Position numbers and translations under genes: made by a program. A stretch of DNA of 63,402 bases, counting the filler, from Rhabdomonas costata (taxonomy: Eukaryota), in the NCBI GenBank assembly GCA_019059605.1. It is 35 parts of 35 records of this genome, joined end to end, with 100 filler letters (N's around TTAATTAATTAA, not from the genome) between each part and the next. Parts side by side here need not be neighbours in the genome. Positions count along the whole stretch, not along the records: positions 29,040 to 30,753 come from JAHMHO010010187.1; 34 more parts are not named here. One strand, 5' to 3'. The notes under the pieces were generated by a model. That model saw nothing but the letters and a program-made list of their open reading frames with translations. It was not told the DNA's origin and searched no databases. Below are positions 18,046-54,437 of the stretch, one piece after another; position 1 is the stretch's first letter, and the number at the start of each line of letters is the position of its first letter.

Positions 18046-18148
18046 NNNNNNNNNNNNNNNNNNNNNNNNNNNNNNNNNNNNNNNNNNNNTTAATTAATTA
18101 ANNNNNNNNNNNNNNNNNNNNNNNNNNNNNNNNNNNNNNNNNNNNGGG

Positions 18149-19269
18149 GTGTTGGGTCATATACTCCATCGCGGCAAGATATACATATTTGGGGGTTCCG
18201 GTCCCGATGGTCCGGAGGGTAACGGTTATCTCTCCAGCGGTGAAGTATATGACCCCCGCACCAACGCGTTTTCCTTGCTTCCGGCGAGGATGTGCAGCAG
18301 GCGCGAAGGCGTGGTTGCTGCCAGCTATGAGGACAATATTTACATCTTCGGAGGAATGGAGGGTATTCGTTGCCTTTCCGTTTGCGAAGTCTTCGATCCC
18401 ATCGCCAACACCTTCACTGTACTTCCCACGGCGATGCGCATCCCGCGCTATTATGCCTGTGCCGTAACGCACGGAGAGCGCATCTTCCTGATTGGTGGGT
18501 TCGACGGCCGGAGGGCGGTTTCCAGCTGCGAATTCTTTACCCCCAGCCTCTTCGCGGGCGCAGCGACTTACACATTCACGATGCTCCGTGCATCACTGCG
18601 CATTAGTCGCTGGGCTGCCTGTGCCGCGGTCCACGGAGGGCGCATCTTCGTGTTCGGGGGGTCCGCGACGGCCGAGACGGCTCTCTCGAACTGTGAAGTC
18701 TTTCGGCCAACGCCAGATGCACCAACACTCCCTGACGTGGAGCCTTTCGGAGAAAGATTGGAAAGGGAGCAATCAATTGCGGTCAGCCTCTTCGATCCCC
18801 AAGCCCCTTATTTCTGGAACCAGGCCCGCTTTCCCTCCTCAGCCCGACCTAGCTTCTTAGTGCAGTCGACTGACTGCCCTGCAGATGTGAAGAGGCTGGT
18901 GGAAGAGCTGATGACGACCCGTGGCCGGTATCGGAGCGGCCTGATGGAAAGACCCGTGGCGGGGTACCAAGTGCATCGTATCGAAATCGTCGACCGCAGC
19001 CCGCTTACCCTTCAAGCTCTTCAGGTCCGCCTGCAGATGCTGGAGAACCTTCGGTCGACGAGGGTTCAGGAAGTTCGGAACGCCGAGGATGCGGTGAACG
19101 AGGATGCAGAGAAGCTTCGGGTGTTGGGTGCGCTGAAGGGGGTTTTTGTGACGCGCCACCGCCCGACAAACGCCGTGCTGACCTTCCACGGCACTGGGAT
19201 AGACTGCGTGGAGCACATTCTGAACGCTGGGCTGCAGAAGTACTGTCGGGAGGACCAGGGCTACTTTGG
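18149..19269 (+). CDS. Kelch-repeat protein fused to a PARP-like ADP-ribosyltransferase domain (partial)
   Basis: Four Kelch repeats (IYIFGG, IYIFGG, IFLIGG, IFVFGG, each followed by S.EVxxP-like segments), then YQVHRIEIV...NAVLTFHGTGIDCVEHILNAGL....DQGYFG ending at a donor gg|gtatgg. Confidence 0.8.
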
Positions 19270-20303
19270 GTATGGTGCGAGGAAGAAAGAGAGACAGAGT
19301 GAGAGCTGTTTTCCAGCGCGCCGCGCCCTCCCTCCCCGCCCCGGTTCAACCTGGCTTGCTTTTCTCTCTTTTTTGTTGGCCATACCTTATTATTGCAGTG
19401 GAGTTCAGGTAAGAGGAAGTGCCTGTTCTGCAATTTTCCGTTTCACTTGACGGTCGAATCTCACCAGAAACCCTGTGAGCACTGCCCCCTTCGGCTGTGA
19501 ACTCCTTGTTTCACATTGAGGCACGAAACGTGTTTCCAGCTTTCATCTCACCAGACCTGTCGTGAGAGTGTCTTTTGTACCGAAGATTGCTGTAGCGCTC
19601 ACATTTAGTTCAGAGGAGCGCCACTCCGCGCAGGTGTTTCGCACGCCTGCGCTGCATCCTAAGGGTCTTTTGTGGGCTGCCCTTTGGACTTGTGCATGCC
19701 GATTGTAGATTTGAAGTGAGAAAGAATCGGTTGCTGACTCAGCCTTCCGCACCAGTATGGCAGTGGCGATAGCGTTGTTGGTTGTGGTACGTAGCATTAC
19801 GGGCTATGCATTTTTTCTCACTTCAAATCTACAATCGGCATGCACAAGTCCAAAACCACNNNNNNNNNNNNNNNNNNNNNNNNNNNNNNNNNNNNNNNNN
19901 NNNTTAATTAATTAANNNNNNNNNNNNNNNNNNNNNNNNNNNNNNNNNNNNNNNNNNNNGTTTTTGAGCACACACATACACAGCAGCAGTGCGCTGTGGT
20001 CCTTCCTCACAGGGCACCAAACCCAACATTGAAACGATTCCTGCAGATACCAGGGGGGATGGGGAAGAACGCAAAAAGGCATGCGCGGACTCTGCATTGG
20101 AATGCAAAAAGTCATTGAAACCAGAAACCGAACCTTGCCAAAACCAACCCTGACCAGAGAAGTGGACAGGACAGCGTGTGTCCAAGTGTAAGGGTGTGTT
20201 TGTGTGTTGAGACACTGAGCTGGGATCTGCTCGTTTGCTCGTTCTGCGGTGTACTCCGTGACTCTACCTGTGACTCTGCAACTGTGACTCTACCCCTCAT
20301 CAG

Positions 20304-21264: not shown

Positions 21265-23308
21265 GTGTGGGTGCTTGTGTCTGCTGTTTTGGCGGGGGTT
21301 GTTGCGTTGGGGATTTGGGAAAGCTCAAGAAGAATTACATTGCTGCGATTATGTCCCGTTCTCGGTCATGGCTCCATCCGTCTCAGTTTACCCATGTATA
21401 CGATCAATGTTTTCAGCAAGAGGTGACGGGGGGGCATTCAAACAATCTTAAAGCGCTTGTTAGCAACGGATGCCAGTGGAGGGGGGCAAAGGTTTGAACC
21501 TACCTCAGCACTCTCGGGTTCCCTCTTCATAGCCCCTTGCCATATTTTTAGAAGCCATGACTTGCACAATTGCTTCATGGCTTCCAGTATTGGTTCCGAC
21601 AATCAATCCATTGAACCCAATGGCAACCCACAAAGAAGTGCACCAACTAAAGAAAGTACCTCTCCACACACAAANNNNNNNNNNNNNNNNNNNNNNNNNN
21701 NNNNNNNNNNNNNNNNNNTTAATTAATTAANNNNNNNNNNNNNNNNNNNNNNNNNNNNNNNNNNNNNNNNNNNNGTGTTGGGTGTGTGTGGTGGTGTGTG
21801 GAACTGCAGGTGCCTTGACGCAAGAACCCAGTAGGTGAGGTCCCTCGAGCCACATCAGCCACGTCACTTTGGGGGTTGCAAGGATGGCGAAGAATTACCA
21901 AAATTACAAAAGCAAAAAGCACAAAAGGGCACAACCACAGCTGGTCGGTTCTGTTTCATTTGTATAAGCAATTATACAGCGCGGAGAAAGGAAGGAAACC
22001 CAGCTCACAGTTTATCTGAAGCGCATCATGCACACAGTTAGCAGACTCCAGGGCCGCCCATGGCGCAGAAGGTATGGGTACCACCCCAGGGTGAAGGTCA
22101 AAGCAGTCCGCGGTGCGGCTTGCGCTCTGCCGCATCAGGCCTCCGAAAAACTAATTGAATTTCAGCACATGCAGATCCACCGGGTCACAAGTGCACGGGA
22201 AACACACAAGAACCAAGGCAAGGACCAAACACCAGCCTTGCATCAGCCAGTGTGATGCACGATGCACTTGTCGGGTTTCTTTCCAGTTGGGCATCAATTT
22301 TCAGATCAGGTCCTCTCGGATCTGAACATGGCCCACAAGGCCCAGTCCGGCATCCAGGACAATTCTCATGAGAGGTTGAGTGCCACCTCCGCGGCCCTTG
22401 CCCCCTCGCCCGCCTCGGAGAGTTCACCGCGTCGAAGTGGGCTGGAGGAGGTTGGGAAGGGTACCTCAGAGTCCTTCGATGGGCAGCAGCTGGACTACAA
22501 CCAGAGTCTTTCAGTGCAATTGAAATTCCTGACATCCTCCCACGGTACGAACCCCTCAAATTCTCAATCCGCCCAACAAATGTATGATATATGGTCCTGG
22601 CAGGTTTATTTTTTTAGCCATGAACTTTGCCCTGGCAGTGCCAAAATCCACTTCATAGCAATTTGGAGAGTATAAAATTTTGATCATTTTTCTGCAGAAC
22701 GCGGGCGGTGTCTCTAAACTGGGATTTGGGAATTTTTTGATTTTGGAAAAAGTATTATGCATAACGGCGTATCTAGAAAGCAGGTTGCAGAATTGAGTTT
22801 TTCTTATGAGTTTTCATGATGTTGTCTTGCCAGTTCCCCTTGTGTTTGCTCACTGCTCACACTGCTCCACATTGGAAGGAATGCACGTGCGCCAGACTTC
22901 CTAGGCTGTCAGCGGACGTCAGATCTTTGGCTCCTGTGATTTCCGGTGGGTGGTCGAGGGAGAGAACGAGATTGGTAGATTTGTGTGCAGGATGCTGCTG
23001 CCTTCCCTCAGTCTTAAGCAGGTTTCTAATTAAAAGTGCGCTTTTTATTAAGGCAAGTATTGCAACTTAACCAAAGATTTGGCGAATGAAGAAGACTTGT
23101 AAAAACCAAGAGTGCTGTGCGATGCTTGCCGCTGGTCTAACTGTTCTCACTCTGGACATTTAACAGTTTTTTCAGTTTCACAGCTGTTTCGAGATGAAAG
23201 GGAGCGGGGCAAAGTGTATGGGGACTTCTACCTGTCCAACACCATTCACACACACAGCAGCTGCGCGACAAGGGCCCGGGACCCGTGGGGCAGAAGGGAG
23301 GTTACCAG

Positions 23309-23432
23309 ATGTGGAACGTTCGGCGTTGAGCCGGTTCCGATTCCCCACGGCACCGTTCGCTCCAACGGCACCTCTCGCGAGCACCCGTGGCCAACAGCGC
23401 GTGCCCCCGTCAGCCCACAGTGGTCACCAACA
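23309..23432 (+). repeat. Dispersed repeat family A, copy 1
   Basis: atgtggaacgttcggcgttgagccgg...cggcaccgttcgctccaacggcacctctcgcgagcacccgtgg...cgtcagcccacagtggtcaccaa aligns by eye with the copies at 34041 (+) and 53030 (-). Confidence 0.8.
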
Positions 23433-23593
23433 ACCAAGCAACCAGGCAACCAGGCAACAGCCACTGCGCAATGCGCCCAACACACACACAAACNNNNNNN
23501 NNNNNNNNNNNNNNNNNNNNNNNNNNNNNNNNNNNNNTTAATTAATTAANNNNNNNNNNNNNNNNNNNNNNNNNNNNNNNNNNNNNNNNNNNN

Positions 23594-25277
23594 CACCCTC
23601 CTCGCGCATCCCTCCGTACAGATAGAGGTGGGTGGTTTCCAGCACGGCCAGCAGGGCGTTGATTCGCCCACACGGCTGCAGGGGCCTGTCAAGTGCCTTG
23701 CCGCTGCCCAACCCCTGAAAGGGGTGCGTCAAGATTTGAAAGAGGATCGTGTGTGCTGTTCGCGGCTCCCCACGAGCAGGAGCACGCGACCGGATAACGT
23801 AAAACGTTCTCAGACGCCTGCCTTTTCTCTTTCATTTCAGAAGACAAGACACAAAAGCCGACTGGTTCCTTTGGGGATGGAGAGCGGATGCATATTACGT
23901 ACACCGGAGTATTGTCAGCGTCCTGTGACGATTTCTGGAAAACAGATCTTGTCCCGTGTCTATGTGGAGCTGTGTGCAGCTACTCTTGGAACCCCAATGC
24001 AACATTCCCCTCACCCGATGTCAAAGGGTGGGCATCGCAAAATGCACAACACGACCTCATCCTCATCTTCCTCAGCTGTGTGGCGGAGGGCAAAGAAGCG
24101 CCTCAGTTCCATGTTGAAGACATAGAGGTCGGCAAAGAACGTGCTACGAAGGTCCGCCTCCTGGTCCTCGAAGTCCCACACTCCGCCAAAAAGGTATATC
24201 TAGAGGATACAGCACCGGAAACTTGCGAAACTTGCGCTGCTAGCGCTGCTACTTCATCAAAAGAGACGCCCCGATGCCCCGATGTCTTCAAACTCAATTC
24301 TCCCATCACCGCCATCACTTCGCAAACTTCAGCATTACGGAGTGCAATCATTTTTTGCTGCCCTGAGAAAAAGAAAATATGTCTATCAAGAAAATCACTG
24401 TCAACGAAAAATGTGGCCCACTTCACCTCAAAAGCAAGAGGTGACAGTAGAAGGTCAAAATCAGCTTAAAAAAACAAGCACAACCGATATGCACTGGAAC
24501 CCAGTTTTTTCACCACCCGTTTTAGCTTCGAAGTCCAAAAACACCTGATTTAGTGCACACTTTTGTAAGTTGTGCCTTTTTGAGGTGACGCGAACAACAT
24601 TATTGACTGGCGCAGATAACAGTGCCACAGTGGCCAGACCTTCTTGTTATGCGTACACGCGGAGATCCCCGAGCGCACCGAAGGCGCGATGCCCTGCACA
24701 CGGAGCTTCCTCCACTGCATCGACGGCAGGTTAAAGCTCCACAGGTCAGCGAAGCACGCCCCGTGGCTCCGGGGGCCTCCACCGGCCCCTGTGGTACCGC
24801 GGCCATGGGCGACGGTCTCCAAGGAGACAGGCACACCACCACAGTACCCGCCGTACATGAAGACGTCGTCTTGGAAGGCCCCCAGGACGCACCCAGAGCG
24901 TGGTGCAGGAACGTCGTCGCTGGGAGCGTATGACTGTACGGTGCAGGAGGTGCAGAGTGAGGGAAAAAGACGCAGACCTCGTGCAGAATGGCAAAACCAA
25001 AGTGATGGGATGACATCAGCGATTACCGCGTACGACAAGGAGATTGTGTCCAGGGGCCGATATGGAACTGAAACGGGCGAATTCAAAGAGAGCAGAGAAA
25101 TGGAACCCGTGTCACGCACCGCGGCCGTCCACTCGGCCTCGCCATCGACGTCTTTCAGTACCCAAAGATCGTTGAAGTAAAGCACCTCTGCCTCGACGGA
25201 GGCCCCGTGAAAGCCCCCAAAGATTACCAGGTTCCTCCGGCAGAAAGCCATCCGATGCCCACTGCGTGCAGTGGGAC
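23594..25277 (-). CDS. KLHDC4: Kelch domain-containing protein 4, 4 exons
   Basis: PTARSGHRMAFCRRNLVIFGGFH...YFNDLW; PAPRSGC...MYGGY...DLW...APSVRSG; IYLFGGVWDFED...STFFADLYVFNMELRRFF; PCGRINALLAV...LYLYGGMREEG. GT-AG introns. Confidence 0.85.
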
Positions 25278-28460: not shown

Positions 28461-29141
28461 GCACAGGCTTGTTCAAAATGCTCGCACAGTGTGGTCCGAC
28501 GCTCCGACAAGCTTTCTTGCCAATTAGTTGCTTGCACCAAGCATTCTGCAGGTGCTCGATGGCTCAGAGTCACAGTTGCAACGCGACGATGGAAGTGGCG
28601 GTGGTAATCACGATGATCAGTGTTTCGCTGCAATTGCAATCCAGAATGAGCTGGTTTCTCTGTGCCTGCGCAATGATATGAAAGTGAGGTTATTTCATTT
28701 GTTTCGCATTGCCCTCGAACGCTCTGCAACTTTTTAGAACCACTTCACGTAACACCATTTACATTATGATCTGCAAGATTCGATTTCTTTGGTGGTGGGG
28801 AAGTTTTCAATGTCACTAACTGTTTCCACTTCACAAACCGCAGCCAGCAGCGACCGCTGCGCGGAGCTGCACAGTGCAGCGAAGACGGTGCTGTTCTCCA
28901 CAGTGGCACTGCTGAACCAAAGCCCGCCAGACCCTCCGCNNNNNNNNNNNNNNNNNNNNNNNNNNNNNNNNNNNNNNNNNNNNTTAATTAATTAANNNNN
29001 NNNNNNNNNNNNNNNNNNNNNNNNNNNNNNNNNNNNNNNGGGGTGTGGGTACAGCGCTCACTTTGCGAAATCTGAACACGAGCCCAGTGAACCAGAGGCA
29101 GACGCCTGATTACACGTAAGTGGTGAGGTTGCAAGCCGGGC

Positions 29142-29657
29142 CGTGATACGTGGTAGCAGAGGTGGAATAATTTGACCCTGTGCGTGGAGCGCAGCTCGAA
29201 ATTGTGGTACCACGTATCACTTCGTGAGACGTGGTAGCAGATGAAGAGTTCAGGACGCCCTGTGGAGATGAATAAGTTGAGAAAGCTTTGTGAGGCACCA
29301 GGAACGGAGCTCTGTGCTGGAGGACAACGTATCACGTCGTGAGACGTGGTAGCAGAACATTGTTTTGAGAAGTTCCTGTGCGGACCAGTGCAGCTTTGAG
29401 GAGTACCACGTATCAGTTCGTGACAAGTGGTATCAGAGTTTTATTAGCCAGTGCGGAAGAGCACAGCTCTGAGTTGTGGTCCCACGCGTCAGTGTGTGAC
29501 ACGTGGAAGCATAGCATAAGCAGAGAGATTTATGGGGTGCAAAGAGTCCAGCGCGGAGAAGAGAGCTCGCAGTTGGTAGAGGAACCGCGTGCAACTTCGT
29601 AACACGTGGTGTCAGAGCAAAGCAAAAGGTTGAGGACTTTATGCGTGGTGTCAGAGG
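29142..29657 (+). repeat. Degenerate tandem array of 36-nt palindromic units, each ending in a tRNA primer-binding-site-like motif
   Basis: Units at 29142 (partial), 29206, 29321, 29402, 29478, 29581 and 29644 (partial); consensus GGTACCACGTATCACTTCGTGA(G/C)ACGTGGTA(G/T)CAGA. Confidence 0.9.
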
Positions 29658-29944
29658 AGCTGTGACAGGAGTCGCGGAAGTTAGCGAGTTTGAACAGAGG
29701 TGGAAGATTCCAGAAGAGGGACAGAACTCAGCGAATCAACCCAAAGTCTGAGTGAGTGGACAGACGTCTTGCATTTGCAAGAGGGCAAAGAGAGTTGTTG
29801 CGCCCCTCGGTTGCTGAGTTGCAAGCAAGACCCCGCGCTATGTGATGGGTTGAGTGTGGTGTTCCTGTTCCCAGGTGATTTTGTCACTTGTGCAGCGCGA
29901 AAAAAGATTGGGTGTATTGGTTGAGTCTGAGCTGAATTGATATA

Positions 29945-30753
29945 TCGGGAGAATGTGCGCCCCAGACGCTAGATGTGTTCCAGACTTTCTTGTTGCATGC
30001 AGATTCTCTGTTTTGGCAGCTGGAAGCGCAGCAGAAGTCGAATAAAGAATTGAAAGACAGTCTGGTGCAGAGATTAAGAGTTACATGGGGCTGCCATCTG
30101 GTTCGAGTAAAGGAGTTGCAGATACAGCGGTAGTGCCAGTCACAGTTGTGCCAGGCCCGTCAGAGGCAGTGGCATAAGCTTTGCGGAAGCTTCAAGAAAA
30201 AGATCCGGAGTTTCCAAGGTACAACGGTAATGCAGCTAAAAGTTTTCCGTGGTTGGTCGCAGTGTAAGAATTGAAAGATTTTCGGAGAGTTGAGGATCAA
30301 GTTGCAATTGTATATGCGGCGGTAGCTTTGGGATCGTGTGCAAGGTGAATCATTGCCACGAATCATACTTTCAGCAATTGGGTAGATTTCACGAGTACGC
30401 CGAGAAAAAGATTTTGTCATTCGACGTGGGACTACAACATTGTTGAAGACTGGAGAACTTTTCATAGTTACTACCAGCAGTTCATCACTGGTCTAAATCT
30501 TTTGGCAAGGACTCGGTTTGAAAACGACGCGCAATTGCAGTATTTGTTTGTAAGATGGTTGGACGTGGACATACAGGCAAGGGTGATTGCGGACGAGTCG
30601 TAGACTTTGGAAGAGGCATTAGAGAAGTCTTGGGACTACTTTCGGAAGCCGAGACCACAACCCAAGTCATTGTTGCAGTGCCCTAGTCGTCGTTGCAAAA
30701 AGCAGTGGTAACAGGGCGTGAAGGCATGGAGTTTGATGCAATGCGTTATGGCT
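29945..30753 (+). pseudogene. Decayed Ty3/gypsy-type gag
   Basis: Frame from 30181: PEFPRYNGNAAKSFPWLVAV*...AIVYAAVALG..AR*...FSNWVDF...RKRF...SYYQQF...LQYLFVRWLDVDIQARVIADES*TLEEALEK, followed by a GMEFD motif. Three in-frame stops in this stretch and at least one upstream frameshift. Confidence 0.8.
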
Positions 30754-30857: not shown

Positions 30858-31026
30858 GGTTGTAGCATAGTCTGTTGCGTAGGTTTGGCTGTAGGTGTAG
30901 TTGGTGCTTCTGTTGTTGGTCGTAGTGTAGTGTAGCTAAGGGTATGGGTATGGGTTGTAGCGTAGTCTGTAGCGTAGGTTTGGCTGTAGGTGTAGTTGGT
31001 GCTTCTGTTGTTGGTCGTAACGTAGG
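30858..31026 (+). repeat. Direct repeat of about 68 bp (period about 96 bp), G/T-rich
   Basis: ggttgtagc(a/g)tagtctgt(t/a)gcgtaggtttggctgtaggtgtagttggtgcttctgttgttggtcgta occurs twice. Confidence 0.85.
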
Positions 31027-32258: not shown

Positions 32259-32716
32259 GTCTCTGTGCTTTTTGTGTGCGAGTACTGGGTGATTCCTATT
32301 GTTATCCAAAGGCTCCTGCTCGGGACATTGGCGACATTGGGCTGCTCGCTGTTGGCGATTGACCGGAATAGCTTGCGTTGCGTGCACGCGCTTGTGGTTA
32401 GGAAGCCAGCATGGCTTCATTGGGATGTAACTGACAAGCTGAACGCCTTAAACAGGGAGGATTTATAGTTCAGGGAACCCAAGGTCCAAAGACCAGAAAT
32501 GGGGGCGAGGGGAAGAAGAGGCCTGCATCCTGGAAAAGGCGTTCAGCTTGTCAGTTACACCCCAACNNNNNNNNNNNNNNNNNNNNNNNNNNNNNNNNNN
32601 NNNNNNNNNNTTAATTAATTAANNNNNNNNNNNNNNNNNNNNNNNNNNNNNNNNNNNNNNNNNNNNGGGGGGGGGTGAAAAAATCAGCGCCCCACTCTCT
32701 CTTTGTATGCTTAAAG

Positions 32717-33798
32717 GGCCCGTGCAGAAGAGATCCTGGAGCATGTCCGGGCCTCCCTGGGAGCGAAGGGAGGAGGCGCCCGCACGATGTGCTTGCTGCA
32801 CCGCGACATCGTGGTGGGGGTGTTAGTGGGGGATCCGATGTCGCCGGACCAGACCCGCGCCTACTCCGCGGCCTTTGATGTCGACACCAAGGTTTTTGTG
32901 CACGTCTTCTTTTTGTTGGGCAAATGGGTTAAGCGGAGCGGAGCGTGTTCCCTGTGTGGGTCTGTTTGCTATGTGTGTGTTTGTTTTTTTTTGCACGCGA
33001 TACTAGTGAGGTAATGATGCCCATCTGTGCTGCATGGTGGACACAAAGACCTGCAGGTCGAAAGAAAAACTGAATGCTGATTTTGTGTGATTTCCCCTGT
33101 GGTGTGGTGTTTTTATGTAACATCTGGTGTGGGAGTGAGCAGAGTTTCGATTGATTGAGGCTCCATTTGAAGCGCACTAGCTTCGTGCGCTATTGCTGTT
33201 GGCGGTGTCAGATGGGACACCTTCTTCATTGCCATTTTTCGGGCGGCTTCATCCAAACGTGACTCACCGAAGCCCAAATGCTCAACAAGAATATCACAAA
33301 TCGTTGCAACGTGCGTTTGTGTGGGAAAAGTTTTGGTCGGGAAAGGGGTGGGGGTTGTTTTGGGTCAACAGGTTTGTCATCTGATTGCAAAAGAAACATT
33401 CTTTCCTTACTGTGAACTTTTATCACAGTCACCCTCAAGGGCCTTGAAAACTTGTGCTGGGCTCTCTCTCACTTCCTGATGAGTATGCCGTGTTCCGATT
33501 CTCGTGCAGGTGGACTTCCTGGCCGCCAGCGGGGCAGGGGACTCGTACTTCAAGCAAACCCCAATTGAGATCCCTAAGATTGGCGTAGGTGCCCCGGCCG
33601 CGGCCTCTTCCTCCGGGGGGAGCCAGTCCCACGCAGTACAGGAGAATGTCCGGGCCTGCCTGGAGGCCTTGAAGGACCCCCTGCCCGGGCTGCGCGTGCG
33701 GGGGTTCTTCGTGCGGCCGATCTTCCGCCCCCACATCCGGCTCTTTCTGAGGGAGAGCCTGAGGCAGCTGCGCCGAGAGATGCTGTACTACACCGCAG
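32717..33798 (+). CDS. CFAP61: CFAP61-like flagellar protein, 2 exons
   Basis: Exon 33510-33798 ends GFFVRPIFRPHIRLFLRESLRQLRREMLYY, matching CFAP61 F.LNPIF.....FLKE.LR......LYY; upstream exon 32717-32891. Confidence 0.6.
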
Positions 33799-34040
33799 GT
33801 TTGGCGGGAACGACAGGGAGGAGAATGTGGGGGGGCGGAGAGCAGTGTGTCGCTCCAACCCAATCCGATGTTGCTTGTATGTTGACGGGGCACTGCACAG
33901 AGTGCGCAAAAAGAAGGGCGGAGCCTCAGTGACCTGAGCAGCCATGGGTAAACGCTTGTAGTGAGTGGAAAAAGAGCTACTACGAGAAAGGCCCAGGACC
34001 TGTGAGGCAGAAAGGAGTCTGCGGTTTGGTGCAAGGCTGG

Positions 34041-34135
34041 GCGGTGAGCCGGTACCCCGCGGCGTCCTTCGCTCCAATGGCACCTCTCTCGAACACATGT
34101 GTCAACAAGGCATGCGCCCGTCAGTCGACACTAGC
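34041..34135 (+). repeat. Dispersed repeat family A, copy 2 (after a CFAP61 donor site)
   Basis: gcggtgagccggtaccccgcggcgtccttcgctccaatggcacctctctcgaacacatgtgtcaacaaggcatgcgcccgtcagtcgacac. Confidence 0.75.
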
Positions 34136-35530
34136 CAGTCAGCAACAGCCTGCGCGCACGCACGCACGCACACACGCACACACATACATTCACAGTATTA
34201 CATTTCACGGGCGGTTGTGTTTATTCCAGAGAAAAACCTGTAGCTTGGCATTCGCAGAGCTTGATATGCCACTTCTCTCCCCTTACCTCCAGCAAATGAG
34301 CAACTGTTTTTACCTGAAGCAGGGACTCCAATGGGCACGTGCGCGCCCACTCCTTTTCCCATTCCCACGCCCCACAAACANNNNNNNNNNNNNNNNNNNN
34401 NNNNNNNNNNNNNNNNNNNNNNNNTTAATTAATTAANNNNNNNNNNNNNNNNNNNNNNNNNNNNNNNNNNNNNNNNNNNNGGGTTTTGGGTGTCAGGCGT
34501 GGAAGGATGTATGCCCGAGCCAGCTTGTCGTTTTCTGTGTGGTCCGCTGCCGTGCCCGAGATCCGCACACTGCCGTGCCGTTCCGTTCCTGAAACGCGCG
34601 GCCATCAGCAACAGCGCCGTTGACAACACGTTACACGTCTTGATATCCAGGTCTCCTTCCGTCTTGACATGCTTAGTACGCATTTTTGTGAACGAGATGG
34701 CCCGAGGGTGTAATCCGCCCTAGATGTACGCCGCGTCGCGGCTCGTATCGCCTATGCTCGTGGTGGTGGGCCACGGGCCATTTATGGGACCAGACCTTGA
34801 AGTCTGCAAGACTGTGGGGATCATTTGCCTCTTTCCGAAATAGGTTCGATAGGAAGCGTTTCCCATATCATCCGTAGGATCAGCTCTTGGAAACGTCCCG
34901 GTCATACCCGGTTTTCTTCTCTCCAAACCCCGGTTTTCGCAGAAAAATATCGCTGTTTCATGGCCCCCACGGATTCTGAAGGTTGATCAATTCTGCAAAT
35001 CGATGGGGAAACCTGCCGTCCCCATTTTTGGTTCGCATCACGAATATCTGTTTCTGGGCAAGGGTGACTTAGGGGGGTGGAATATCAAAATCTTGGTATT
35101 ACGATGGCAGTTCCGCTAGCCCGCGTCTATGAACACGTCGCCGTTGCGGCGTTTTTGCGTGTCTGATGGCGCCTGTCTCTCTTTATGTGTGCTCCGCGTG
35201 GTTTCGGTTCATGCATGACCGCGGGTGTGTCTCTTTTCCACATTGGTGCAGCTGTGGGGGGTTCTATCGGGTCCTCGTGCGCGCTTTTCTTTTTGACGCC
35301 TGTGTCCGTCTTCGTGGGTCTTCGTGCCCGCCTTAGGACGGCATAAAATCCGGCTCTTCAAAGAACCTCTCAAACGTTTCTGTTTTCCGTTAATTACGAC
35401 AAGGTTTTCTGGGGCGACCCTCGGTTTGCGCGCCCAGTATCCTTATGTTTCTATGTTCCACCCTTCCGGCTTTTTCCGCGTGGGCCGTGGGTCCCTTGTG
35501 TCTTCTTTCTCGTGTGGATTGTGTTTTTCT

Positions 35531-52392: not shown

Positions 52393-52835
52393 GTGGTTCC
52401 CCAAGGGCCCGCGTCAGGGATTTACCTCTGCTCACAATCCATTGACCATGTCGTCGGGGCAGAATTCGTCCCATCACTTGGAGGCTCACGTTGAGGAAGC
52501 ATAAATTCCCCTTGTCTCTACCAANNNNNNNNNNNNNNNNNNNNNNNNNNNNNNNNNNNNNNNNNNNNTTAATTAATTAANNNNNNNNNNNNNNNNNNNN
52601 NNNNNNNNNNNNNNNNNNNNNNNNCTTGTGAGCGAGAGGTGAGGTGAGGTGATACGCGCTGAAGCGCTTCAGCCACAACTATCGACACAGCCACAACACC
52701 AACTCCCATTTTCACATATTCTGCTCCGTGTTTGGACGCAACCTGGGAGGCGAACCATAGAAGAACTTCCTCCCAATTAGTCTTGGGAAAACGAAAAGGG
52801 ATACACTGGAAATGAGTGAAATGGGGGATAAGTAC

Positions 52836-53570
52836 CTGCTGCCCTGTTCCCGTCAGCGAGATCCCAAACCGCTGCGGAATGGTGTAGGTGCCGCTGCTGA
52901 CCAGCTGATTCCCGTTGATCCCAACAATGGCCCGGCCCTGCAGCAACCTCACCTGACCGAAAAGAAAACCACCGCACCATATCTCAGAAACCAGAAGCGC
53001 AAGAAGAAAGCGAGTGTGCTGGGCATATGTGTATTGGTGACCACTGTGGACTGATGGACGCATGCGCAGCAGGCCTCACGGGTGCTCGCATGAGGACCCC
53101 TTGGAGCGAACGGCACCGGGGGTACCGGCTTATCGCCGAGAGTTCCAGATATACACTGCCACAGTCCCACAGAAAGCACAAAAAAAAACGTGCGTGGGAC
53201 GAGGAAGGAGACGGATTTGTTTGTAATGTAACCAAGCAGCCATATGGCACAAACAAACGACGAAATGACGAATGAATGAGGAAAACTGCGGCAAACACTT
53301 TTAAAAGACAGTCAGGCCGACTTTTGGGTACCACAGAGCACCCATCTAGAATGAAACGCAGAAAAACTAATATCATTGGATTCGCCCCACTGTAGGGGTC
53401 TTCACTGCCCAGAAAGACCTTCATATGACGGGATTATCGCCTCTAACCTGCAGGAAGTACTGCTGGCCAACTGCTAGAAGGCCCACGAGGATCGCGGACG
53501 GGATAACTGCTAGGAGCGCAATGGGGATGGCAAGCCGTGTGACGCATGATTTAGTGTATACTCCCACCCC
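52836..53570 (-). CDS. Membrane protein fragment, 2 exons
   Basis: RLAIPIALLAVIPSAILVGLLAVGQQYFLQ|gttag and cag|VRLLQGRAIVGINGNQLV...GTGQQ|gtact. Confidence 0.4.
53030..53150 (-). repeat. Dispersed repeat family A, copy 3
   Basis: Reverse complement reads atctggaactctcggcgataagccggtacccccggtgccgttcgctccaagggg...gcgagcacccgtg...catcagtccacagtggtcaccaa. Confidence 0.8.
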
Positions 53571-54437
53571 ACGCGCAGACCGTACGCACAAAATCTGAGA
53601 TGTGTGAACTTGCGTTGCCACCCAGCCCAGAATATGGCGCCCATTTATTCAAAAAGGGGGACCTGCACCACGTCCCCCACCTTCAGCGGGGGGCAAAGAA
53701 GGTCGCCCCGGCGCTGGCCGTTGGCCATTATATAGACGGAGAAGCCCTTGGCAGTCACCCCGTAGCTACCACGGAACCCCGCAGAGCCCATCGCGTTGTC
53801 CAGAAAGCCGTCAATATGCCCAGCCTATGCAACAGAACCTTGCAGCGGAGGCAAGACAAGTACCCGAGGTGGAGATTAGGTGGTCCGAGTAGCAGTTGCT
53901 TCGGCTTTTACCAACTGTGCAAAAACAAATTACACTTTACAACTTCGCCCGAGTCCAAGGAGGTGCAAAAAGAGGCTAAAAACACATGATAGAAGTTGAA
54001 AACATAACCCGTAACATTCAGGAGAGGTGCCCAAAAAACTGCTCCCGGTGGTCTCTGGGATGGTATTGCGCCATTATGCATTCTGGCATAATTCATTGTC
54101 AACTTCATCGAAGGCAGCCTGTTCACACCACCCTTCCTTACTTGAGTTCTTTCAGAAGAACATTACGGACATAACGGACATTAAATTTACATGCAATGCT
54201 TGTTTTCAAGTTTTTCGTTTTTTTTTTTGCAAAAACCCGAAACTCCATTATTGTTATTTTCTATAAAAAAAACAACGTTCTTTTTTGCGAATTTATGAAG
54301 CAAAGGGAAGCCTGCGTCCTGGCAGTTGCACAACCCCNNNNNNNNNNNNNNNNNNNNNNNNNNNNNNNNNNNNNNNNNNNNTTAATTAATTAANNNNNNN
54401 NNNNNNNNNNNNNNNNNNNNNNNNNNNNNNNNNNNNN

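Follow-up and report, generated by a model that had tools for sequence, protein, structure and literature searches.

The sequence analysed here (the window) is a stretch of 63,402 bases from Rhabdomonas costata, which splitting at N runs resolves into 35 artificially chained pieces of 1712–1720 bp that are apparently sorted by size. Specifically, the string TTAATTAATTAA is found 34 times at a spacing of ~1814 bases, each time between N runs, and the complete linker (44 N, TTAATTAATTAA and another 44 N; 100 bp) contains a stop in all six frames. Because the pieces are joined by artificial linkers, any feature that crosses one is an artefact. The true context of the array described below is an unplaced contig between two linkers (29040–30753, plus strand; 1714 bp, 49% G+C), and nothing beyond these limits belongs to the locus. 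Along its plus strand the contig carries 102 nt upstream of the first repeat unit, an array of repeated units (29142–29657), the non-repeated rest of a leader outside the repeat copies (29658–30084) and a gag relic cut by the contig end (30085–30753). No LTR, PPT or pol is present on 29040–30753; the end at 30753 falls inside gag, and the 3′ end of the element is not on the contig. The segment at 29040–29150 (plus strand), in which ...GTGATA and CG stand before the first primer-binding site (PBS), is the putative 3′ end (U5) of the 5′ LTR. It has no similarity to other contigs in the window, and we infer its ‘U5 end’ label, like that of the ‘leader’, from position only.

The gag relic reads in a single frame on the plus strand from a possible ATG at 30085, with homology from 30178 to 30729 and five in-frame stops in 223 codons (30175, 30265, 30346, 30601 and 30709). 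When 14 metagenomic gag proteins were compared with the window by tblastn, all 14 matched 30178–30729 and nothing else, in frame +1 and with E-values from 4e-40 to 1e-8, the best being P0112 (4e-40), P0111 and P0132 (both 2e-39). The alignment contains a 9-residue gap and no frameshift, and a frameshift near 30299 is ruled out by the single-frame match. The first-pass annotation had noted such a relic about 300 bp downstream of the array; it is real and on the same strand, while the measured distance from the array end is 428 nt to the possible ATG and 520 nt to the start of homology (30178).

Relatives of the relic were sought among 1.84 billion cluster representatives, with the read-through of 30301–30753 (stops as X) as the query, and 20 proteins were recovered at E ≤ 1e-3, including 8 at E ≤ 1e-10. 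The ten that were looked up all derive from ENA, JGI or NCBI metagenome assemblies and bear no informative names; P0111 and P0132 are encoded on one 8,962-bp metagenome contig. Within the set P0110–P0136, one contig is binned in a bacterial MAG labelled Azonexus sp., which is probably eukaryotic contamination of the bin. No relatives were found in genome and viral contig collections, and a search for fused gag-pol relatives found none, which is weak evidence. A scan of metagenomes returned one related locus (L001, 1258 bp), all of it gag.

With respect to element class, Pfam matches within a 15-member alignment of the gag proteins were to Ty3_capsid (7), zf-CCHC (4) and Retrotrans_gag (2). Ty3_capsid is the best family, with a best E of 1.4e-6, and all of its matches lie under the 29.1-bit cut-off. 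An AlphaFold model of P0111 has a mean pLDDT of 52 and is confident in the helical capsid part only; Foldseek places dArc1, Copia, Arc, HIV and Ty3 capsids at the top, all with E of at least 0.01, and does not tell Ty3-type, copia and retroviral capsids clearly from one another. A PDB profile search with the same alignment gave CCHC knuckle matches only and no capsid at E<1. The relic itself ends before the CCHC region, and these knuckles are known here from some of its relatives. Judged by sequence homology, gag identity is certain, and the tblastn matches over the capsid part make it a capsid-type gag. The earlier assignment to Ty3/gypsy goes further than this evidence: the class is not established, with Ty3_capsid below threshold and gag the only element gene on the contig, and ‘Ty3-like’ is the best available label rather than a proven one.

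Upstream of gag, a repeat search identified seven plus-strand copies of a 19-nt core, CGTGAnACG-TGGTAGCAGA, within 29142–29655. The copies start at 29142, 29223, 29338, 29419, 29495, 29598 and 29637 and are 74–100% identical to the reference copy. A 36-nt hairpin unit is found five times, at 29206, 29321, 29402, 29478 and 29581 (75–100% identity), with start-to-start distances of 115, 81, 76 and 103 nt that leave gaps of 79, 45, 40 and 67 nt. The array reported in the first-pass annotation is thereby confirmed as a whole, with seven cores and five full 36-nt units, as are its spacer lengths of 40–79 nt and the strings quoted for units 4 and 6. The 13-nt pattern ACGTGGTRKCAGA, with at most one mismatch, occurs six times in the 63,402-base window and always within the array, against an expectation of 0.17; six or more matches were seen in none of 100 shuffles. 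An nhmmer profile built from the seven cores likewise recovered just those seven on the plus strand of the whole window (E ≤ 0.011), the next-best matches being reverse-complement hairpin arms within the array. Neither the unit nor gag was found in the other 34 contigs of the window by blastn, tblastn or nhmmer, and TRF did not detect the array.

The individual units, all on the plus strand, differ in completeness and in how well they are predicted to fold. Unit 1 (29142–29162) consists of the core CGTGATACG and TGGTAGCAGAGG; it has the best PBS match of the array (12 nt) and is without the masking 5′ arm. In unit 2 (29206–29241) a full hairpin (8+4 bp) is joined to TGGTAGCAGA, and its local RNA fold of −19.6 kcal/mol (z −4.5) was equalled by 0 of 200 shuffles. 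Unit 3 (29321–29356) also ends in TGGTAGCAGA, behind a hairpin with a damaged 5′ arm (z −1.6), while the hairpin of unit 4 (29402–29437; z −2.1) leads into TGGTATCAGA(G). Unit 5 (29478–29513) combines a hairpin (z −3.8) with the degenerate motif TGGAAGCATA, and unit 6 (29581–29616) a hairpin (z −0.8) with TGGTGTCAGA(GC). Finally, unit 7 (29637–29657) lies 39 nt after unit 6 and is a core only (TGGTGTCAGAGG; nhmmer E 0.011), with no hairpin.

Cutting the array at each TGG gives periods of 81, 115, 81, 76, 103 and 39 nt plus a tail, and the whole periods p1–p5 align end to end at pairwise identities of 54–71%. The array is therefore a degenerate tandem repeat of ~80 nt with insertions, and the spacers, which had been described as semi-unique, are part of the repeat and not unique. 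Its head-to-tail homologous units upstream of gag place it among UTR tandem repeats. The units differ by 11–25% from one another as well as in length. Moreover, TGTC is common to units 6 and 7 and GTGAGA to units 2 and 3, and such derived variants common to neighbouring units point to stepwise duplication instead of one burst. A possible partial eighth copy, CAGAGGTGGAAGATT, is located at 29695–29709 (plus strand; low confidence). It contains CAGAGGTGGAA, identical to 29157–29167 of unit 1, where these 11 bases follow TGGTAG. By our own estimate ~0.35 chance pairs of repeated 11-mers are expected in 1.7 kb, so the match alone is not significant; the segment may represent an eighth unit in decay and gives a hint of TGGTAGCAGAGGTGGAA as the ancestral sequence of the PBS region.

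Several other identities for the repeats were considered and rejected. Stop-to-stop ORFs over the array and leader, taken on both strands, contain no significant Pfam family (best E 0.089), and the periods of 115, 76 and 103 nt are not multiples of 3, which argues against a coding array. ARAGORN detects 0 tRNA genes in the window, contrary to a tRNA gene or tRNA-derived SINE, and Rfam returns two matches only (E 2.3 and 2.6), far under their gathering scores. In public contigs, the exact hairpin pattern was found as one perfect palindrome, in a Chitinophagaceae MAG (L002, 5959–5988), which we judge to be a chance match unrelated to the array; viral contigs contained none.

The conserved core resembles the primer-binding site for initiator tRNA-Met, as had been proposed. 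The PBS reported as complementary to human tRNAMet(i) is tggtagcagaggatggtt (PMC1797187), and TGGTAGCAGAGG in unit 1 reproduces its first 12 nt before diverging. Similarly, the tRNA-Met PBS listed for plant copia elements is TGGTATCAGAGC, preceded by 2-nt spacers (PMC3852365), and TGGTATCAGAG in unit 4 equals 11 nt of it. By our own calculation, either published PBS would be matched exactly over 12 nt ~4e-4 times by chance on the two strands of a 1714-nt contig. The resemblance extends to the flanking bases. Taking the most frequent base over the five full units gives GTGACA-CG-TGGTAGCAGA, and the consensus before each TGG is ...ACA followed by CG, which resembles an LTR end with a 2-nt spacer; spacers of this length between LTR end and PBS fit the pattern tabulated for the tRNA-Met PBSs in PMC3852365. 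The repetition of an LTR-end/PBS-like junction that was proposed for the array is supported, and we accept that the core probably is, or derives from, the U5-end/PBS junction of the element.

The PBS forms within the array include TGGTAGCAGAGG(TGGAA), TGGTATCAGAG and TGGTGTCAGAG. The TAGC, TATC and TGTC variants occur as described previously, where primer switching was among the possible roles offered. Adaptation of the variants to different tRNAs is doubtful, as TATC and TGTC are one and two substitutions, respectively, from TAGC. Given so few substitutions, in a copy with five stops in 223 codons, the variants are more simply seen as point decay than as primer switching.

In the hairpin units, the core is preceded by a 5′ arm that is an inverted copy of it and that includes up to 8 nt of the PBS (one such pair extends over 16 nt with 94% complementarity). 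This arm resembles the 3′ end of a tRNA (TACCA) continued by the complement of the U5 end, and the first 5–8 nt of the PBS lie within the opposite, 3′ arm. The description of about seven hairpin units with the PBS in a stem accordingly applies to five of the seven cores; units 1 and 7 lack a hairpin because their 5′ arm is missing. Compared with shuffles, local hairpin folding is clearly favoured in units 2, 4 and 5 and only weakly so in units 3 and 6; units 1 and 7 show none. Over the five units, 83% of hairpin cells are paired and 10 of 60 are unpaired. The covariation check suggested alongside folding gave 0 compensatory changes among the 12 hairpin pairs of the five units: mutations break pairs and do not preserve them. 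In addition, the array folds better than shuffles on both strands (z −4.4 and −4.9), which is expected of any DNA palindrome. The inverted repeat itself is genuine, and there is no covariation support for a selected RNA structure.

Conservation is unevenly distributed along the repeat. Among p1–p5 the PBS 11-mer is the best preserved, with a mean pairwise identity of 83%; the hairpin follows at 71% and the spacer, which holds every one of the 47 gap columns, at 50%. The best circular window of 37 columns (75%) was reached in 32 of 10,000 column permutations, a test that is partly circular, as the register was chosen on the conserved core. This pattern fits stepwise duplication in which the core was preserved, and is a poor match for one recent duplication with uniform decay thereafter.

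This last scenario is the likeliest of the alternatives. An ordinary tandem duplication of the leader, by slippage or unequal exchange, could have taken in the one PBS, either in this copy or in the one it directly descends from, and then decayed without any function. Such a neutral event would agree with the five in-frame stops of a dead copy, hairpins without compensatory changes, and the lack of a second copy in the window, with the related locus L001 being all gag; tandem repeats in UTRs, next to the LTR or gag, are also reported to be common (10.1101/2021.07.15.452536). Uniform decay, however, predicts neither a core at 83% and 71% identity beside a spacer at 50% nor gap columns restricted to that spacer, and the variants common to neighbouring units imply several rounds of duplication. 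We consider a neutral one-off possible, if on the unlikely side. Mere chance resemblance to a PBS, or an assembly artefact, we find highly improbable: the assembly is fragmented and the contig short and unplaced, but the exact 12-nt match lies on the right strand, 5′ of gag and after ACA plus 2 nt, and units that differ by 11–25% and in length are not what read collapse or mis-joining produces.

Two further explanations would assign the repeats a role in which the PBS is incidental. In Drosophila gypsy, ZAM and Idefix, the 5′ UTR contains an enhancer or insulator, and palindromes of the form CCACGT...ACGTGG, with their ACGT and CACGTG cores, could bind dimeric transcription factors in a DNA-level array of this type, the PBS likeness being secondary. 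Each full unit is indeed a 13+13 nt inverted repeat with two ACGT cores, and the equal folding of both strands relative to shuffles is what DNA symmetry gives. Conservation nevertheless runs beyond the palindrome into GCAGAG, as part of the PBS 11-mer at 83%, which a tRNA-complementary site needs and a palindromic one does not; units 1 and 7, moreover, retain only the PBS-side half. This renders a regulatory array distinctly unlikely in our estimation. The remaining candidate is a packaging or dimerisation signal made of leader stem-loops that are bound by gag nucleocapsid, with the PBS duplicated as a passenger. Retroviral signals of this kind lie between the PBS and gag, which is also the location of the array, and five local hairpins together with relatives that encode CCHC knuckles would suit it. 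That the stems show no covariation, and that conservation peaks in the PBS segment beyond the stem, leads us to regard this as very unlikely.

What we observe, then, is a repeat with hairpin potential and a PBS match, a gag relic in the same orientation, and a core that is better conserved than the spacer. With moderate confidence, we interpret the array as a degenerate tandem repeat of a U5-end/PBS module in the 5′ leader of a dead LTR-retrotransposon with a Ty3-like gag. The module would correspond to the element's own junction of U5 end, 2-nt spacer and initiator tRNA-Met PBS (...GTGACA-CG-TGGTAGCAGAG), and in five units an inverted copy preceding it would pair with the last U5 bases and the first 5–8 bases of the PBS. 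Limits on this reading are that it concerns a single dead copy on a 1.7-kb contig and that the match of unit 1 to the human PBS ends at 12 nt. As judged from one dead fragment, this is a genuine and unusual structure with a coherent anatomy, and its function is putative. Compared with the interpretation offered in the first-pass annotation, a PBS-like core upstream of gag is retained, the Ty3/gypsy class is not established and adaptation of the PBS is doubtful; the multiple priming sites, tRNA-fragment decoys and processed small RNAs suggested there are hypothetical roles.

In terms of origin, the array may have arisen by duplication between PBS copies, either through strand-transfer slippage during reverse transcription or through unequal recombination. 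It would then have been carried through many replication cycles with its core constrained before this copy died, and the TATC and TGTC forms would reflect that decay instead of adaptation to other tRNAs. As each unit pairs an integrase-type ...ACA end with a PBS, several units could have been usable. Priming at unit k would yield DNA with LTRs that include units 1 to k−1 and would leave the RNA unchanged; since the transcript would be the same whichever unit primes, the array could persist. Multi-site priming of this kind is something we infer from the layout of the units.

A stronger form of the argument is that a lineage of elements maintains a battery of alternative priming modules, each composed of an integrase-type LTR end, a 2-nt spacer and a tRNA-iMet PBS and each masked by a sequence of its own that mimics a tRNA 3′ end. 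We think this unlikely. If it were true, reverse transcription could start at several sites and generate LTRs of variable length from one RNA, and the surplus of masked sites could shield the element from mutation of the PBS or from inhibitory 3′ tRNA fragments.

The array can be compared with several known systems. Drosophila gypsy-group elements carry repeats in their 5′ UTRs. UTR tandem repeats are reported to be common in LTR-retrotransposons more generally (10.1101/2021.07.15.452536; PMC3286476), and those described for cranberry elements have periods as long as 93 bp and as many as 15 copies (10.1101/2021.07.15.452536). These systems, among them the plant examples (Tat/Ogre, Athila and chromoviruses), have in common with our array a short set of repeats between LTR and gag, here seven units with periods of 76–115 nt; they differ in that the unit repeated here itself contains the PBS and an LTR-end motif. 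Our literature search returned no description of a repeat unit that is a PBS junction, though supplementary tables, which lie outside such a search, may list cases.

Relative to the canonical tRNA-iMet PBSs of LTR retrotransposons and pararetroviruses, the array agrees in having TGGTAGCAGAGG and TGGTATCAGAG 2 nt after ...ACA, 5′ of gag and on the same strand. It departs from them in having seven copies instead of one, five of which are partly paired with an upstream inverted copy. Structured PBS regions are known from retroviruses, namely the avian U5-IR stem and the HIV-1 PBS domain, which are single and backed by covariation and genetics. Sequestration of part of the PBS in a stem with U5-proximal sequence is common to these and to the array, whereas the stems of the array are reiterated and lack covariation.

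Complementarity between a PBS and the element's own RNA also brings to mind the self-priming of Tf1, in which the PBS matches no tRNA and pairs instead with a segment at the very 5′ end of the transcript. In the array, by contrast, the complementary arm is internal, positioned 12 nt upstream of each PBS and repeated, and the PBS matches tRNA-iMet; on these grounds we reject Tf1-type self-priming. The arm already holds the ‘extension’ bases, so its cleavage would not be expected to give a productive primer. Lastly, tandem LTR-internal-LTR arrays of Cassandra reportedly reiterate the PBS along with the repeated unit, in that case a complete element that is hundreds of bp long and includes full LTRs. 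The PBS is reiterated here, too, because the unit containing it repeats, with units of 39–115 nt inside one leader.

To our knowledge, LTR retroelements almost universally have one PBS, next to the LTR end. Were a lineage to keep several, this would bear on the choice of priming site and hence on the LTR boundary, on how leader repeats arise during strand transfer, and on the evasion of silencing by PBS-targeted tRNA fragments. The gag family is of interest in its own right, being known here from metagenome contigs in addition to the R. costata copy, and the host seems to be a protist that has received little study. The latter impression comes from an intron-free Kelch-repeat ORF at 18146–19447 (plus strand), whose closest relative, a EukProt protein, is only 52% identical, with the remaining matches at ≤42%. 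A second intron-free Kelch-repeat ORF is situated on a separate contig at 24553–25305 (minus strand); the Pfam matches of the two ORFs are to Kelch_1 (E 3.5e-33) and Kelch_KLHDC2_KLHL20_DRC7 (E 3.6e-19). Elsewhere in the window, the start of the contig that follows the array contig carries a degenerate 30-nt tandem repeat (30861–30996; 4.4 copies, 63% matches) that is unrelated to the array. In addition, blastn reveals a dispersed segment of ~100–124 nt at 71–75% identity in the contigs at 21775–23493, 32667–34380 and 52625–54337, the last of which matches both of the others.
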